DNA from: a virus
Lineage: Duplodnaviria > Heunggongvirae > Uroviricota > Caudoviricetes
DNA length: 18,787 nucleotides
Strand: one strand, 5' to 3'
IMG/VR virus record: IMGVR_UViG_2778261532_000018
Location: 1-18,787 of that record
This document shows, in pieces, positions 8,097 to 12,781 of the stretch (position 1 is the stretch's first letter; each line of letters opens with the position of its first letter). The notes under the pieces were generated by a model, which had not been told where the DNA came from, ran no database searches, and saw only the letters and a list, made by a program, of their open reading frames with translations. The translations under genes were made by a program, and so were the position numbers.

Positions 8097-8387
8097 TCAT
8101 CTTTTAACTCCATATACCGCCAATACCCGTTTCATCGCGGCACTCTGGCGACACTCCTTAAAAATCAGGTTCGTGCTCATCTTTCCTTCCCGTTCTTCCC
8201 TGGTAGCAAACCGGTAATACACCGTTCGCCAGACCTTACCTTCGATAACCAGAAGACCTGCCCGTGCCATTTTAGCCGCGGCCTGATTTATGCTGGTTAC
8301 TGTTGCGCCTGTTAGCGCGGCAACGTCCGGCGCACAGAAGCTATTATGCGTCCCCAGGTAATGAATAATTGCCTCTTTGCCCGTCAT
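8097..8387 (-). CDS. ren: Ren
   Basis: 96-aa product MTGKEAIIHYLGTHNSFCAPDVAALTGATVTSINQAAAKMARAG... matches lambda Ren as I recall it. Confidence 0.9.
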   Translation of the reverse strand: MTGKEAIIHYLGTHNSFCAPDVAALTGATVTSINQAAAKMARAGLLVIEGKVWRTVYYRFATREEREGKMSTNLIFKECRQSAAMKRVLAVYGVKR

Positions 8388-9085
8388 ACACTTGCTCCTT
8401 TCAGTCCGAACTTAGCTTTGAGTTCTGCGATCTTCGCCAGAGCCTGTGCACGATTTAGAGGTCTACCGCCCATGACAGGAAGTTGTTTTACTGGTTCAGG
8501 GATCGCCTCACCACGGTTAATTCTCGCAGTCATATGGACAAGCTCATCTGCGGCCTTACGGCGTAATTCCGCATCAGTAAGCGCATTGGCCCGCATGTTC
8601 TGATACAGGTTGGTAACCAGCCAGTAGTGCGCGTTTGATTTCCACGGATAAGACTCCGCATCCGGATACAGGCCTCGCTTCCGGCAATACTCGTAAACCA
8701 TATCAACCAGCTCGCTGACGTTTGGCAGTCCGGCGATAACGGATGCTTCTTCCCGGCACCATGCAACAAACTGCCCGGGTGATGGCAGAAATGGTCGATT
8801 CTGCCGACGGGCTACGCGCATTCCTGCGTTAACCTGTTCCATTGTGGTGATCCCGTTTTCCCGGAAAGCCAGCACCCACTGGCGGCGGATTTCGTTCAGT
8901 TCGTTCTGGTCCCGGTTAGCCAGGCTCGCCGGGAAAGTTGCCAGTAACTGGCTGAACACACCATTGATGATCTGCGCTACCTGTTGTACCTGCGGCTTTT
9001 CGTCGTACTGTTCCGGCATGTTGTTGGCGATCCGACGCATCTGCTCACGGTCAAAGTTAACCATCTGTGCGGCGATGTTTTTCAT
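8384..9085 (-). CDS. P: Replication protein P (DnaB helicase loader)
   Basis: 233-aa product MKNIAAQMVNFDREQMRRIANNMPEQYDEKPQVQQVAQIING... matches lambda P as I recall it. Confidence 0.95.
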   Translation of the reverse strand: MKNIAAQMVNFDREQMRRIANNMPEQYDEKPQVQQVAQIINGVFSQLLATFPASLANRDQNELNEIRRQWVLAFRENGITTMEQVNAGMRVARRQNRPFLPSPGQFVAWCREEASVIAGLPNVSELVDMVYEYCRKRGLYPDAESYPWKSNAHYWLVTNLYQNMRANALTDAELRRKAADELVHMTARINRGEAIPEPVKQLPVMGGRPLNRAQALAKIAELKAKFGLKGASV

Positions 9086-9981
9086 AGATCCACCCCGTAA
9101 ATCCAGTCTGTGTTTGTCAGGTCGAGTTTTGGTTTGCTGGCTATCACGCCTGCCTGTTGCTTGTTACGGTTGATTTCGAGTTGGGTCCACTTATCGCGGA
9201 GTTTGGCCGGGCTCAGCACGTTACCGGACCAGAAGTTGTCCTGGCAGGCCCAGCGGAAAAGCACACACATATCGCGGTGGTTACGTCCGTCACGTTCACG
9301 CATCAGGCGGATATCGTTAGCCCACCCAGCAAAATTCGGTTTTCTGGCTGATGGCGCGATGGTCTTCACCATGTCAAACATCCACTCTGCGGCGGTCAGG
9401 TCTTCTGCTGTTCCCCACTTGCTGCCGCTCTGAATTGCAGCATCCGGTTTAACCACAGAAAGATCGTTTTCTGGCTGGTCAGAGGATTCGCCAGAATTCT
9501 CTGACGAATAATCTTTTCTTTTTTCTTTTGTATTAGTGTCTTTTGTGTTCCCCTGTTTTGAGGGATAGCAATCCCCCAATTTGAGGGATGTTTTATCCCT
9601 CGTTTTAGGGGGTTTTCCCTCGTTTTGAGGGATACACCATTCTGAGATGTTTTTATTTGGTCCAAACATGCCGCCTTGCTGCTTGATAATATTCATTCTG
9701 ACGAGTTCTAACTTGGCTTCATTGCACCGTTTAACAGGTAACTTTGTAATCTCGCTAAGTTGAGAATCGGTGATTCTGTCCATTGGTTTATTCCACCCAT
9801 AGGTTTTACGCAGAATGGCAAGCAGCACTTTAAACTGTCGCTTGGTCAGATCTGCGCCTGAATAAGCCTCAAGCAGCATATTTGATAGTCTGGCGTAACC
9901 ATCATCGAGATCTGCCACATTACGCTCCTGTCCGGCAAAGTTACCTCGGCCGAAGTTGAGTATTTTTGCTGTATTTGTCAT
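9082..9981 (-). CDS. O: Replication initiator O
   Basis: 299-aa product MTNTAKILNFGRGNFAGQERNVADLDDGYARLSNMLLEAYSGADLTKRQFK... matches lambda O; contains the ori iterons. Confidence 0.95.
   Translation of the reverse strand: MTNTAKILNFGRGNFAGQERNVADLDDGYARLSNMLLEAYSGADLTKRQFKVLLAILRKTYGWNKPMDRITDSQLSEITKLPVKRCNEAKLELVRMNIIKQQGGMFGPNKNISEWCIPQNEGKPPKTRDKTSLKLGDCYPSKQGNTKDTNTKEKRKDYSSENSGESSDQPENDLSVVKPDAAIQSGSKWGTAEDLTAAEWMFDMVKTIAPSARKPNFAGWANDIRLMRERDGRNHRDMCVLFRWACQDNFWSGNVLSPAKLRDKWTQLEINRNKQQAGVIASKPKLDLTNTDWIYGVDL
9495..9635. repeat. ori-lambda: four ~18-bp iterons (9550-9634) plus adjacent AT-rich region (about 9495-9545) inside O
   Basis: Four copies of a TCCCTC-N6-GAGGGA type inverted motif at ~22-bp spacing, flanked by an A/T-rich stretch. 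Confidence 0.85.
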
Positions 9982-9991: not shown

Positions 9992-10068
9992 GTTGATAGA
10001 TCCAGTAATGACCTCAGAATTCCATCTGGATTTGTTCAGAACGCTCGGTTGCCGCCGGGCGTTTTTTA
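9992..10068 (+). ncRNA. oop: OOP antisense RNA ending in the lambda t0 terminator
   Basis: Sequence from GTTGATAGATCCAGTAATGACC to GCCGCCGGGCGTTTTTT matches the lambda oop/t0 region as I recall it; overlaps the 3' end of cII on the opposite strand. Confidence 0.8.
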
Positions 10069-10310
10069 TTGGTGAGTCCATCAAGCGCATACTTAAAAGC
10101 CCTGCTAATCGGACTGATGTCTGATGCCATTCCGAAAGCACACAAGACCGAAGCAATAAATCTCCAGTCCGTTCTGCTTATCTTCGATTCATGACAGCCA
10201 ATCATCTTTGCCAAACCGCGCTGTGTAAGCGTTGACAGGTTGATGAGTAAATCTGTTTCTGCGCGATCAACGTCGCGCTGTGATAGTTTGCTGTAACTTG
10301 TTTGTTCCAT
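10014..10310 (-). CDS. cII: CII-type lysogeny activator (P22 c1-like N-terminal part, lambda CII-like C-terminus)
   Basis: 98-aa product; the C-terminal TNKKRPAATERSEQIQMEF matches lambda CII, the N-terminal two thirds does not. Confidence 0.8.
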   Translation of the reverse strand: MEQTSYSKLSQRDVDRAETDLLINLSTLTQRGLAKMIGCHESKISRTDWRFIASVLCAFGMASDISPISRAFKYALDGLTNKKRPAATERSEQIQMEF

Positions 10311-10419: not shown

Positions 10420-10635
10420 TTAAGCGGTTTTGTGTTCCGGTGGGAACACGTCATCAAGACTGACTTTTGCGCCTAACTTGTTTAGGCACGCAACAAGAGC
10501 ACGGCATGTTTTAAGGTCTGGGAAGCGACGACCAGATTCCCAATGTCCGATAGCTCCCTGTGTGCATCCAACCGCCTTAGCAAGTGTTGTTTGAGAGATA
10601 TTCAGTGACTCTCGATATTTTCGTAGGTTGCTCAT
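10420..10635 (-). CDS. cro: Cro-like repressor (HTH), heterologous immunity
   Basis: 71-aa product MSNLRKYRESLNISQTTLAKAVGCTQGAIGHWESGRR... with HTH; ATG at 10635 preceded by GGAGGG; divergent from cI across an operator region. Confidence 0.8.
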   Translation of the reverse strand: MSNLRKYRESLNISQTTLAKAVGCTQGAIGHWESGRRFPDLKTCRALVACLNKLGAKVSLDDVFPPEHKTA

Positions 10636-10752
10636 ATGCCCTCCATAGTAACCATGAAACAATAATACGATATGTACTTTTGGAATGCAAACAAAAAATA
10701 CATCTTGTGCATGGATGGTTTTAGTACAGAGCGTAATAATAAGGATATGAAA
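10636..10752. promoter_or_regulatory. OR region with divergent PR and PRM and operator-like 13-bp motifs
   Basis: PR on minus strand: -35 TTGCAT (10685-10690), 17-bp spacer, -10 TATTAT (10662-10667). Motif copies ATACGATATGTAC (10665-10677) and GTACAGAGCGTAA (10724-10736) overlap the PR -10 and a putative PRM -10 (TAATAA 10734-10739). Confidence 0.6.
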
Positions 10753-11406
10753 ATGAAATGGTATGAACTGGCTAGATCCAGAATGAAAGAACTCGGCATA
10801 ACTCAAGAGAAGTTAGCTGAAGAGCTTGGTATGACGCAGGGTGGAATTGGTCACTGGTTGCGCGGATCTCGTCATCCATCTCTTGACGAGATTGGTATGG
10901 TGTTTAAATACCTTGGTATTGATAACGTCTCGTTCAACCACGACGGTACATTTTCACCTGTTGGCGAATACTCATCTGCCCCCGTTAAAAAACAATATGA
11001 GTACCCTGTTTTTTCTCATGTTCAGGCCGGGATGTTCTCGCCTGAGATTAGAACCTTTACCAAAGGTGATGCGGAGAGATGGGTAAGCACAACCAAAAAA
11101 GCCAGTGATTCTGCATTCTGGCTTGAGGTTGAAGGCAACTCAATGACAGCGCCGGCAGGATTGAAACCAAGTTTTCCTGATGGAATGTTAATCTTGGTTG
11201 ACCCTGAACAACCTGTTGATCCTGGTGATTTCTGTATCGCTAGACTTGGTGGTGATGAATTCACATTCAAAAAACTGATCAAAGATAGTGGGCAAGTGTT
11301 TTTGCAACCACTCAACCCGCAGTTTCCAATCATCCCATGCAATGAGAACTGCAACATTGTAGGCAAGGTTATCGCCAGTCAATGGCCTGAAGAGACGTTT
11401 GGGTGA
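10753..11406 (+). CDS. cI: CI repressor (heterologous HTH N-domain fused to lambda-type S24 autocleavage C-domain)
   Basis: C-terminal ~130 aa from [17 protein letters not shown]... to [12 protein letters not shown] match lambda CI as I recall it; N-terminus is different. Start 10753 preferred for SD spacing (alternative ATG 10747; track ORF starts at 10672). Confidence 0.9.
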
Positions 11407-11472
11407 TATATGTGAAATGCATATATTGATATAAATGCAGCAATATCAAATAGTTAAAAGGTTATATTTTTA

Positions 11473-11853
11473 ATGAATGATCTTGATAAGAAAAAGTACG
11501 ACCAAGTTATTGATTCTGTGAACTTCGCCCTTAGATCGTTGTCAGAGTTATTCGAAGCCCATGGAATGCATGGGATGTATGATCTAACGAATCCAAGCCT
11601 TGATGAGCTAAAATTAGTGTTTACAAGGATGAAAAACGGTGTTGACTCTATTGCTCAAAGCTTTGAGCACATGGTAGAGACAGCAAAGGATATGGATGCC
11701 GCAAGTGCAAGCATAAATGTTATGAACATCAAACAAGGATTGATGTATGCTGAATCACTATTGCTTGCTGTAGAGAAATTAGACTATGATAAATGTGTGG
11801 AAGCAAATACGCAGATAAAAACCCACGATCTTCCACCAACCCAATGGCCTTAA
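11473..11853 (+). CDS. Hypothetical protein in the rexAB slot downstream of cI (unrecognised, AT-rich)
   Basis: 126-aa ORF, no hydrophobic segment, acidic; AAAAGG 11 nt upstream of ATG; codon usage markedly more AT-rich than neighbouring lambda-type genes. Confidence 0.6.
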   Translation: MNDLDKKKYDQVIDSVNFALRSLSELFEAHGMHGMYDLTNPSLDELKLVFTRMKNGVDSIAQSFEHMVETAKDMDAASASINVMNIKQGLMYAESLLLAVEKLDYDKCVEANTQIKTHDLPPTQWP

Positions 11854-11922
11854 TAGTAAATCAAGATTTCATATAGTCTATTTGAACTAGGCTAGTACCA
11901 TAAAATAAACCGAGGAAACGCA

Positions 11923-12024
11923 ATGAAAACCATGTCCACTCTGCACAAAGATGCAATGACCCTGAGATCTCTCATTAACGAGATTCTGGCTCGCTCGTCA
12001 GCACACACCAAAAAAGCCGCATAA
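11923..12024 (+). CDS. Small ORF (33 aa, basic) preceding the immunity-region terminator
   Basis: Manually translated: MKTMSTLHKDAMTLRSLINEILARSSAHTKKAA; GAGGAA SD 6-7 nt upstream; below the ORF-track length cutoff. Confidence 0.3.
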   Translation: MKTMSTLHKDAMTLRSLINEILARSSAHTKKAA

Positions 12025-12035
12025 TGCCTACATAA

Positions 12036-12061
12036 CCCGGCCTCAGCGCCGGGTTTTCTTT
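12036..12061 (+). terminator. Intrinsic terminator at the end of the cI-distal operon (tIMM-like position)
   Basis: CCCGGC-CTCAGC-GCCGGG followed by TTTTCTTT. Confidence 0.7.
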
Positions 12062-12199
12062 GCCTCACGATCCCCACACCTAATAACACCATAACCAATT
12101 GTATTTATTGAAAAATTGACAGATACAACTTGCTAAACAGTGCAATTCTGATCCCTCACCTACCAAACAATGTACCCCTGCAAAAAATAAATCCATAAA

Positions 12200-12273
12200 A
12201 TACAATATGTTATAAAAAACCAACAACATTTAGAACATTTTGTATTGACTAAATAAAGTACACATCGTACTAT
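12200..12273 (+). promoter_or_regulatory. OL/pL region with operator-like motifs
   Basis: -35 TTGACT (12245-12250), 17-bp spacer, -10 TACTAT (12268-12273); motif copies ATACAATATGTTA (12200-12212), a weaker copy on the opposite strand (12235-12246) and GTACACATCGTAC (12258-12270) overlapping the -10. Confidence 0.55.
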
Positions 12274-12316: not shown

Positions 12317-12353
12317 CGGGCTCTTTAACTTCGATGGGGCGCTGACAAAGCGC
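12317..12353 (+). promoter_or_regulatory. nutL (boxA plus P22-type boxB)
   Basis: boxA-like GGCTCTTTAAC (12319-12329) then boxB hairpin GCGCTGACAAAGCGC (12339-12353). Confidence 0.7.
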
Positions 12354-12472: not shown

Positions 12473-12781
12473 ATGACGGTAATCGTGTACGGGAAATCAA
12501 CATTCGCAGGAAATGCCAAAACTCGCCGTCATGAGCGGCGCAGAAAGCTGGCCATCGAGCGTGATTCCATCTGCAACATCATCGATTCGATCTTCGGAAC
12601 AGACAGCGAGGAACCTGTTCAGAAAGACACGAGAAAGCGTTTAAGCCTTTCTGAAAAAGCAATATCACTCGGCAACATTCGTAACCAAAATACCGACGAA
12701 TGCAGTGGAAGTATTTGCCTGCCAAACGTAGCCATTTACGCGGCAGGCTACCGGAAATCAAAACAACTGACGGCGAGGTAA
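12473..12781 (+). CDS. N: Antiterminator N (P22 gene 24-like, arginine-rich motif)
   Basis: Product from MTVIVYGKSTFAGNAKTRRHERRRKLAIERD... ; arginine-rich motif matches P22 N as I recall it; GAGGAA SD; start is the internal ATG of the track ORF. Confidence 0.85.
   Translation: MTVIVYGKSTFAGNAKTRRHERRRKLAIERDSICNIIDSIFGTDSEEPVQKDTRKRLSLSEKAISLGNIRNQNTDECSGSICLPNVAIYAAGYRKSKQLTAR

Follow-up and report, generated by a model that had tools for sequence, protein, structure and literature searches.

The DNA analysed here, a stretch of 18,787 nucleotides that we call the window, contains two clusters of short palindromes, at 10665-10736 and 12200-12270, and the question that they raise is which protein reads them and whether the resulting genetic switch would work as it does in lambda. 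A reading made earlier from the letters alone (the sequence-only reading) had regarded the sites as plausible targets of CI and Cro. Gene context, conservation, covariation with the repressor and a match to the predicted operators of the phage VT2-Sakai all support that proposal, and we conclude that CI and Cro of a lambda-like prophage of E. coli almost certainly bind at these palindromes.

Gene context and operator inventory

The gene order is P, O, cII and cro on the minus strand, followed by cI, pL and N on the plus strand, and the Pfam matches in the region are HTH_3 with S24, HTH_3, Phage_CII and N_peptide. The cI gene (10753-11406, plus strand) encodes a protein of 217 aa, or 219 aa if the ATG at 10747 is the start, with Pfam HTH_3 and Peptidase_S24 domains; the recognition helix of its N-terminal helix-turn-helix (HTH) reads TQGGIGHW, and its C-terminal S24 domain is ~92% identical to that of lambda CI by BLASTP, with Y210 of lambda CI replaced by F and M212 by I in the alignment, both at positions implicated in lambda cooperativity. 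The divergent cro gene (10420-10635, minus strand) encodes an HTH_3 protein of 71 aa with the recognition helix TQGAIGHW, and alignment of Cro with the cI N-terminal domain shows that the helix TQG(G/A)IGHW is common to both. This Cro also has a homologue in PDB entry 28tn ("lambda repressor-like protein"; E = 5e-17) and weak sequence matches to the N-terminal domain of P22 C2. As in lambda, the region has a CII site, and a terminator follows the cI operon. According to the ORF map and the Pfam matches, the two clusters lie between the divergent cI and cro genes and upstream of pL and N, respectively. The window very probably holds the immunity region of an E. coli lambda-like prophage, orientated opposite to the usual lambda map, with six sites as its operators. 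The prophage lies outside an Stx context and is identical to one in E. coli PEC41.

Two promoters were identified by a promoter scan. PR (10662-10690, minus strand) has a -35 element TTGCAT (10690-10685), a 17-nt spacer and a -10 element TATTAT (10667-10662), and was listed by the scan as TTTGCA-18-TATTAT; the TTG of its -35 element is kept in relatives. The pL promoter (12245-12273, plus strand) consists of TTGACT, 17 nt and TACTAT, the -10 element being at 12268-12273. In the annotation of AP000422, PR and pL are the major rightward and major leftward promoters. The putative PRM (10712-10740, plus strand; -35 TGGATG, 17-nt spacer, -10 AATAAT), whose predicted start lies near the ATG at 10747, was placed by homology with the annotations of AP000422 and AP005153, which show a "putative maintenance promoter for cI" at the homologous position. 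The consensus promoter scan of the window missed PRM, as expected of an activator-dependent promoter.

Three sites, OR1-OR3, occupy the cro-cI interval, and the other three, OL3-OL1, precede pL and N. OR1 (ATACGATATGTAC; 10665-10677, 17-mer 10663-10679) overlaps the PR -10 element and is centred at about -16 from the predicted PR start. OR2 (ATACATCTTGTGC; 10698-10710, 17-mer 10696-10712), which is upstream of the PR -35 element and adjoins the putative PRM -35 element, is centred at about -43 relative to the predicted PRM start; of the six sites it gives the weakest match, with GTG as its right half. OR3 (GTACAGAGCGTAA; 10724-10736, 17-mer 10722-10738) overlaps the putative PRM -10 element. 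On the left, OL1 (GTACACATCGTAC; 12258-12270) forms the best palindrome and extends into the pL -10 element, OL2 (GAACATTTTGTAT; 12233-12245) covers the first base of the pL -35 element, and the distal operator OL3 (ATACAATATGTTA; 12200-12212) has GTT as its right half, as it does in nearly all relatives. The -10 hexamers of PR and pL begin inside OR1 and OL1. All six sites conform to the consensus A-RTACR-N3-YGTAY-T, which may alternatively be described as RTAC-N5-GTA(Y), and AC followed by a purine is found in each of the 12 half-sites in the window. Several dyad sites sharing one half-site consensus, a feature of lambdoid operators, are therefore present.

Reading the sequence confirmed the four main 13-mers that had been reported previously, at 10665-10677, 10724-10736, 12200-12212 and 12258-12270. 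The proposal that one copy in each region overlaps a -10 element was also borne out, by the promoter scan for OR1/PR and OL1/pL and by the homology-placed promoter for OR3/putative PRM. The formula RTAC-R-N-A-N-YGTA has 12 positions rather than the 13 bp claimed for it, and its middle A is T in two of the four sites. The weaker copy assigned to 12235-12246 exists, in a register that was off by 2 nt (OL2 is at 12233-12245), and the tally of two sites on each side plus this weaker copy was incomplete: OR2 at 10698-10710 had been overlooked, and the actual arrangement is three plus three.

A proposed switch and the spacing of OR1 and OR2

By analogy with lambda, CI dimers, and likewise Cro dimers, would place one helix-turn-helix on each ARTACR half-site and would not read the central 3 bp of each site base by base; Cro is expected to read the same half-site as CI because the recognition helices are near-identical. 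At OR1 and OL1, the best palindromes, the promoter-proximal GTA half-site would supply the TA that opens the -10 hexamer, so that bound CI would block PR and pL, and OL2 would cover the edge of the pL -35 element. OR2 adjoins the weak PRM -35 element at about the place where lambda CI acts as the activator of PRM, and could serve the same purpose here; the counterparts of the acidic residues E34 and D38 of lambda are E and E. OR3, lying over the PRM -10 element, would shut off cI at high CI or on Cro binding. The C-terminal domain of CI has kept its Ala-Gly cleavage site and its Ser/Lys catalytic motifs, and RecA-stimulated self-cleavage should therefore induce the prophage. In this scheme, the physical binding of CI and Cro, the occupancy order, PRM activation and cooperativity are predictions. 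Lambda-style cooperativity is the least secure part, because OR1 and OR2 are 33 bp apart as opposed to 24 bp in lambda.

Spacings between site centres in the window are 33 and 26 bp at OR and 33 and 25 bp at OL, so the lambda-like O1-O2 spacing of ~24 bp is approached at OL (OL1-OL2, 25 bp) but not at OR. We also considered OL as a direct-orientation duplicate of OR, since the plus-strand spacing of 33/25-26 is common to both; the direct alignment scored 12 and the inverted alignment 15, and both exceeded shuffled sequences because the sites are palindromic, so the idea was dropped. Among relatives, the OR1-OR2 distance ranges from 32 to 35 bp through the length of a run of A, and OR2-OR3 is fixed at 26 bp in 81 loci.

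The wide spacing raises the alternative that these are indeed CI/Cro operators of a switch wired unlike that of lambda, in which OR1 is filled independently and cooperativity acts between OR2 and OR3, through OR-OL looping, or not at all. OR2-OR3 and OL1-OL2 are the only site pairs at lambda-like distances (25-26 bp), and the OR spacing is 33-34/25-26 bp, with an OL pair 25-26 bp apart, in two diverged relatives with cI 86% and 74% identical (L085 and the Citrobacter locus L086). By comparison, relatives of the same C-terminal domain family with CAC-type half-sites have OR spacings of 24/24, like lambda. In addition, the 933W repressor is reported to be non-cooperative on adjacent sites (PMC3317979). 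Against this alternative, the near-identity of the CI C-terminal domain to that of lambda means that the cooperativity surface is probably present, and 33 bp corresponds to ~3.1 helical turns, which would put the dimers on nearly the same face of the DNA and may allow contact between OR1 and OR2. We consider such rewiring unlikely. This very common immunity type pairs a near-lambda CI C-terminal domain with a re-spaced OR. With somewhat greater reserve, we suggest a more specific and rather improbable form of the rewiring: should pairwise cooperativity of the lambda kind fail to reach from OR1 to OR2, PR would be repressed by an independently bound, strong OR1, and the cooperative unit would be the OR2-OR3 pair on PRM or would depend on an OR-OL loop. 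If this were true, the phage group would provide a natural experiment on the tolerance of lambda-CI cooperativity to a change in spacing, and it could bear on the induction readiness of Sakai-type Stx phages.

Conservation, covariation and chance

The relatives in IMG/VR have cI proteins 93-97% identical to that of the window, and 203 of the 5426 complete genomes of E. coli have an operator region with at least 90% identity. In a footprint sample of 33 OR and 43 OL haplotypes, variable columns accounted for 3 of 36 positions in the half-site core, 17 of 30 in the site centres and 80 of 166 outside the sites (Fisher p = 3e-5 to 3e-6), counts that are not fully independent given that the haplotypes are related. 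The half-site core of OR1 is invariant in all 33 haplotypes. At OR2, TAC and GTG are invariant around the centre variants ATCTT, ACATT, ATATT and ATAAC, a conservation that could stem partly from the adjoining PRM -35 element. Positions 1, 5, 9 and 13 of the 13-mer vary by transitions only, and nearly all transversions fall in the centre, at positions 6-8, the exception being a single one at position 11. Of the 50 unique half-site variants, every one has the C followed by a purine, and 49 have the A. The OL3 variant of the window, ATACAATATGTTA, is absent from the other 42 OL haplotypes. As read from these haplotypes, conserved half-sites flanking free centres are the evolutionary signature of dimer-binding operators.

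More distant relatives reveal that the operator sequence co-varies with the DNA-binding domain of the repressor. L085 and L086, which are otherwise diverged, keep TAC-N5-GTA/GTG at OR. In L107 and L108, which belong to the same C-terminal domain family, the recognition helix is PSRLxNYE in both cI and Cro, and OR and OL each have three copies of CAC-N5-GTG; TAC-N5-GTA is absent from the control regions of both loci, occurs nowhere in L107 and is represented by two scattered copies elsewhere in L108, and, conversely, CAC-N5-GTG has no occurrence in the window. Loci with the lambda N-terminal domain have lambda operators; many of the "66% relatives" from the scan of genomes proved to be lambda contamination of assemblies from unrelated taxa and were used only as a lambda reference. 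There are thus three pairings, TQGxIGHW with TAC-N5-GTA, PSRLxNYE with CAC-N5-GTG, and the lambda domain with lambda operators. Conservation of the motif alongside this cI type was a check that had been set beforehand, and the motif is indeed kept with similar cI proteins and replaced by another half-site where the CI/Cro DNA-binding domain differs.

This covariation bears on the idea that the sites bind LexA or some other regulator of the host, or that just one of the two phage proteins, CI or Cro, recognises them. Although cI is routinely auto-annotated as "LexA family", the motif follows the phage N-terminal domain and not the host, since loci in E. coli, Citrobacter, Trabulsiella and Scandinavium differ by cI/Cro type, and the near-identical recognition helices of cI and Cro speak against binding by one of them only. 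We regard this explanation as very improbable. The LexA box is CTGT-N8-ACAG; it is absent from all six sites, and LexA was rejected as the binder.

The window itself also provides statistical evidence. Exact TAC-N5-GTA occurs four times in 18.8 kb, and three of these copies are in the two control regions of ~100 bp. When all 3-mer dyads with spacers of 0-11 in OR and OL were scored against dinucleotide shuffles, TAC-N5-GTA was the top dyad (3 observed versus 0.082 expected); a dyad as enriched arose in 22 of 3000 shuffles, and the count of the specific motif with up to one mismatch was reached in none of 5000. With a family-wise probability of ~0.007, support from the window alone is moderate. 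A weight matrix for which the published VT2-Sakai operators were the sole source, scored at ~18,770 window positions, ranked OL1 first, followed by OR1, OL2, OL3 and OR3 in second to fifth place and OR2 in eighth. Two extra matrix matches, at 12090-12106 and 128-144, were rejected as operators, their scores being no better than chance (~0.7 expected per window at that threshold); the former sits in a stretch that differs in most relatives. That the motif is a chance product of AT-rich intergenic DNA, or of promoter elements common to PR and pL with their similar -10 regions, and binds no repressor is hardly credible, the least probable of the alternatives. In its favour, both control regions are rich in A and T; dyads counted crudely, with up to one mismatch allowed and composition left uncorrected, are mostly A/T-only, and such a count fails to pick out TAC-N5-GTA; and OR1/PR and OL1/pL are alike over ~20 bp including the -10 element. 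Against it, the composition-corrected scan puts TAC-N5-GTA first, four of the sites (OR2, OR3, OL2 and OL3) do not form a -10 element of either promoter, both symmetric half-sites are conserved around a centre that is free to vary, and the half-site switches along with the recognition helix in related phages.

Relation to the VT2-Sakai group and other lambdoid phages

The six sites match one-to-one the "putative operator" features annotated in VT2-Sakai (AP000422) and an Stx1-converting phage (AP005153), and the VT2-Sakai OR1-3 and OL1-3 oligonucleotides in Table S1 of PMC10742460 correspond to them. As cited in PMC4587872 and PMC10742460, these predictions trace to Fattah et al. (2000, Genes Genet Syst 75:223). 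We compared the window with VT2-Sakai (Sp5; AP000422, AP000363), the Stx1-converting phage (AP005153) and Stx2 phage II (AP005154). The gene order, the three-plus-three layout, the half-sites and the positions relative to PR, PRM and pL are the same, and the centre spacings (32-33/26 and 33/25) match. The 13-mer core of OR3 is identical to VT2-Sakai OR3, with 16 of 17 annotated positions matching, and the other five sites differ only in central or flanking bases. The cI HTH is identical to those of L083 and L084, and Cro is one residue off that of L001, all of them VT2-Sakai-type relatives; the OR DNA is ~85.6% identical to VT2-Sakai and the cro-OR-cI DNA ~91% identical to the Stx1/Stx2 phages. 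The window differs from the group in the genes between cI and pL and in its N/nut type, which is P22-like. Orthologous cI and cro, the same recognition helices and six operators at homologous positions and spacing place the window in the VT2-Sakai/Stx1-converting-phage immunity group, which corresponds to the Stx-phage CI "Clade I" of PMC8951638. Because the HTH is identical and the half-sites are conserved, a lysogen of the window prophage is predicted to be immune to VT2-Sakai-type phages.

On this comparative evidence the operators are almost certainly real, and they were already known by prediction. For about two decades GenBank has carried the same six sites in its records of VT2-Sakai and the Stx1-converting phage, and nothing here is conceptually new; what is added is the refined consensus with its comparative support, a documented anomaly in OR1-OR2 spacing, and a correct annotation of the genetic switch of a prophage. 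Keyword and full-text operator-sequence searches of the literature found no binding or reporter study with the cognate CI or Cro. The only binding assay found for these sites used lambda CI and gave an apparent Kd of 3.7-6.4 uM (PMC10742460); the value for the 933W repressor on nonspecific DNA is ~6 uM (PMC3317979). The immunity group includes the Sakai-type Stx1/Stx2 phages, in which repressor-operator affinity sets the ease of toxin induction.

Phage 933W likewise has an Stx-phage immunity region with dyad operators, in which the centre is less conserved than the outer positions 2-5 (PMC3317979). It differs in repressor clade and consensus and has only two OL sites, and its operators have been characterised experimentally by the Koudelka and Friedman laboratories, whereas those of the VT2-Sakai type are predicted.

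The window shares with lambda the tripartite operators that flank cI and overlap PR, PRM and pL, the divergent arrangement of cI and cro, the centring of the O1 sites at about -16 and the position of OR2 at about -43 from PRM. In contrast, the lambda half-site is of the TATCAC type within a 17-bp site, as opposed to ARTACR here, the N-terminal domain is only distantly related, and the OR2 of the window is clear of the PR -35 element because OR1-OR2 is 33 bp, not 24 bp. Unlike lambda Cro, the Cro of the window belongs to HTH_3 and has the N-terminal domain of cI as a relative.

In the very similar recognition helices of repressor and Cro, the window resembles 434 and P22. In those phages, repressor and Cro bind the same dyad sites, whose outer half-sites are conserved around a variable centre that is not contacted base by base; operator length is 14 bp in 434 (ACAA-N6-TTGT) and 18 bp in P22. 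Neither the sequences of the half-sites nor the lengths of the operators agree with those in the window, and the immunity specificities are separate.

Immunity region and predicted operators

The window contains a lambdoid immunity region whose orientation on the ORF map is reversed relative to the usual lambda map. P (8384-9085), O (9082-9981; both assigned from the ORF map), cII (10014-10310; Pfam Phage_CII) and cro (10420-10635; Pfam HTH_3) lie on the minus strand and cI (10753-11406; Pfam HTH_3 and Peptidase_S24) on the plus strand. The 2 kb between 10400 and 12400 share 100% identity with a prophage of E. coli PEC41. In the interval from cI to a plus-strand terminator (12034-12055), where lambda has rexA and rexB, are plus-strand ORFs of 126 aa (11473-11853; phrog_16322, function unassigned there, and no match in Pfam) and 33 aa (11923-12024). 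Most relatives have other genes instead of this segment, at which alignments end, and it may be cargo expressed in the lysogen.

The sequence-only reading had proposed a 13-bp motif, RTAC-R-N-A-N-YGTA, as the CI and Cro binding site, an observation that is real yet incomplete. Its coordinates are exact for four sites, OR1 (10665-10677) and OR3 (10724-10736) between cro and cI, and OL3 (12200-12212) and OL1 (12258-12270) upstream of pL, but the formula as written has 12 positions and its central A is T in two sites. The weaker copy placed at 12235-12246 exists and corresponds to OL2 (GAACATTTTGTAT), which lies two bases away in register at 12233-12245, and a third site in OR, OR2 (ATACATCTTGTGC, 10698-10710), had been overlooked. 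The site consensus is A-RTACR-N3-YGTAY-T; when half-sites are taken with their flanks, the first base is A in 11 of 12, and AC followed by a purine is present in all 12.

These six operators have previously been predicted and annotated in the VT2-Sakai/Stx1-phage immunity group. In the records of the Stx1-converting phage (AP005153) and the Shiga-toxin phage VT2-Sakai (AP000422), OR and OL each have three 17-mers labelled 'putative operator', and their positions are exactly homologous to those in the window; the same records mark PR, PRM and pL as well as terminators, nut sites and a CII site. OR1-3 and OL1-3 are predicted in Sakai-type Stx2a phages (PMC4587872), the VT2-Sakai OR1-3/OL1-3 oligonucleotides are the same sites in reverse complement (Table S1, PMC10742460), and both papers trace the operator predictions to Fattah et al. 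(2000). Our literature search turned up no study of binding by the cognate repressor; the sole binding assay found on these sites used lambda CI, with an apparent Kd of 3.7-6.4 uM (PMC10742460), compared with ~6 uM for the 933W repressor on nonspecific DNA (PMC3317979).

Enrichment, conservation and recognition helices

Exact TAC-N5-GTA occurs four times in the 18.8 kb, with three of the four copies in the two control regions. When all 3-mer dyads in OR and OL whose spacers ranged from 0 to 11 were scored against dinucleotide shuffles, TAC-N5-GTA ranked first (3 observed, 0.082 expected), and any equally enriched dyad arose in 22 of 3000 shuffles; a cruder dyad count without composition correction did not set it apart. 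A symmetrised weight matrix, derived solely from the six published VT2-Sakai operators, gave OL1, OR1, OL2, OL3 and OR3 as its five best matches in the window, with OR2 eighth. The sixth match, CATAACCAATTGTATTT (12090-12106), directly past the terminator with OL3 108 bp downstream, is probably no operator: its score is within chance expectation and the neighbouring DNA is unlike that of most relatives.

To the sequence-only reading, the proposal depended on conservation of the motif alongside this cI type, and such conservation was observed. Among 80 IMG/VR loci (cI 93-97% identical) and additional genome loci, giving 33 distinct haplotypes of OR and 43 of OL, only 3 of 36 half-site core columns (positions 2-4 and 10-12 of the 13-mer) vary, each in one haplotype, compared with 17 of 30 central columns (Fisher p = 3e-5) and 80 of 166 non-site columns (p = 3e-6 to 4e-6 against non-site and against all other columns), the haplotypes in these tests being related. 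Only transitions are seen at positions 1, 5, 9 and 13, and nearly all transversions fall at positions 6-8, a single one being at position 11. Such a pattern is the classical signature of an operator for a helix-turn-helix dimer that does not read the individual bases of the centre. Of 5426 complete E. coli genomes, 203 contain the operator region at >=90% identity, as do 64 phage records.

The predicted design is also kept in more distant relatives. Locus L085 (cI 86% identical) has ATACAATATGTAC, ATACATAACGTGC and GTACAAAGCGTAA in OR (spacings 34/26), and two sites in its OL are separated by 26 bp. The Citrobacter locus L086 (cI 74%, other DNA diverged) has TTACACATTGTAT, TTACATTATGTGC and TCACATACTGTAA in OR (33/25), and the distance between its two OL sites is 25 bp. 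Around 15 matches at 66% identity, among loci L087-L102, are lambda cI on contigs, some of ~48.5 kb, labelled Shewanella, Chromatium, Kitasatospora, Capnocytophaga, Pseudomonas, Bradyrhizobium and others; these look like lambda DNA contaminating those assemblies.

The window cI and Cro have a common recognition helix, TQG(G/A)IGHW, and the L086 helices are TQGALSHW and TQSSICHY. Trabulsiella and Scandinavium prophages (L107 and L108) encode a lambda-like CI C-terminal domain of the same family as in the window and a different N-terminal domain, with a PSRLxNYE helix in cI and Cro alike. At OR each has three CAC-N5-GTG sites, and at OL another three, spaced 27/25 (L107, 2917-2975 and 3751-3813; L108, 2901-2959 and 4461-4523), and the two look like a separate immunity type. 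TAC-N5-GTA is absent throughout L107, as is CAC-N5-GTG from the window, and lambda operators are present at lambda-type loci. Since each helix type is accompanied by its own half-site, the half-site follows the phage's own recognition helix, and the interpretation of the six predicted sites as CI/Cro operators is supported. The window Cro has a clear homologue in PDB entry 28tn (six chains, 82 aa, titled 'lambda repressor-like protein'; E = 5e-17), which, if solved with DNA, would give a direct view of half-site reading.

Promoters and proposed regulation

The promoter scan identified PR (minus strand, TTGCAT-17-TATTAT) and pL (plus strand, TTGACT-17-TACTAT). Both -10 hexamers begin at the 'TA' of the GTA half-site of OR1 or OL1, therefore placing the centres of these operators near -16, and OL2 touches the pL -35. 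The putative PRM (10712-10740, TGGATG-17-AATAAT, with a weak -35) was not detected by the scan of the window and is assigned by homology with the AP000422 annotation; hence the proposed overlap of a motif copy with a -10 element holds from the scan for PR and pL, and only through this homology for PRM, whose -10 is overlapped by OR3. OR2 is upstream of the PR -35 and adjoins the -35 of the putative PRM.

We envisage that CI and Cro dimers would read the ARTACR half-sites, with CI blocking PR from OR1 and pL from OL1 and OL2. OR2-bound CI, centred at ~-43 from the predicted PRM start, would probably activate PRM by analogy with lambda, and PRM would be shut off via OR3.

cI has two in-frame ATGs, 10747 and 10753. 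With PRM predicted to start close to 10747, its maintenance transcript may lack a leader, like that of lambda cI. AAGGA at 10741-10745 could serve ATG 10753 when transcripts are longer. The L086 cI has one ATG start, apparently equivalent to 10747. Within the 5' end of cII, TTGCTGTAACTTGT (10288-10301, plus strand) matches TTGC-N6-TTGC with one mismatch and is the counterpart of the 'CII protein binding site' and establishment promoter annotated in AP000422.

Downstream of pL are nutL-like elements, boxA GCTCTTTAAC (12320-12329) and a boxB hairpin GCGCTGACAAAGCGC (12339-12353), and, also on the plus strand, N (12473-12781; Pfam N_peptide) with the arginine-rich motif GNAKTRRHERRRKLAIERD. The hairpin is the P22 boxB sequence, and the region is thus a mosaic of a Sakai-type immunity module and P22-type N/nut.

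Comparison with lambda

The window CI belongs to the 'Clade I' Stx-phage repressors, with 61% identity to lambda CI (PMC8951638). Since its C-terminal domain (10990-11406) is ~92% identical to that of lambda CI whereas the two N-terminal domains are only distant relatives, cI is a domain-level mosaic. The Ala-Gly cleavage site and Ser/Lys motifs are intact in the alignment, and with this C-terminal domain RecA-dependent induction is expected. The acidic residues E34 and D38 of lambda CI both align with E, and lambda Y210 and M212, both implicated in lambda cooperativity, are replaced by F and I.

Read along the plus strand, the sites are arranged as OR1-33-OR2-26-OR3 and OL3-33-OL2-25-OL1, one shared spacing pattern in which the closer-spaced pair lies over PRM at OR and over pL at OL. 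An A-run between the PR -35 and OR2 (10693-10698) ranges from A5 to A8 among relatives, so that the OR1-OR2 centre distance is 32 bp in 5 loci, 33 in 61, 34 in 13 and 35 in 2, and the OR2-OR3 distance is constant (26 in 81 loci). These differences may reflect genuine phase variation in the distance between operators or, alternatively, errors in the assembly of a homopolymer. The CAC-type relatives have an OR spacing of 24/24, in contrast to 33/26 in the window. The lambda centre spacings are 24/23 and 24/20, compared with 33/26 at OR and 33/25 at OL in the window, and the distance is therefore lambda-like at OR2-OR3 and OL1-OL2 and not at OR1-OR2; this OR1-OR2 spacing, and with it a possible departure from lambda-style OR1-OR2 cooperativity, is the sole mildly new aspect.
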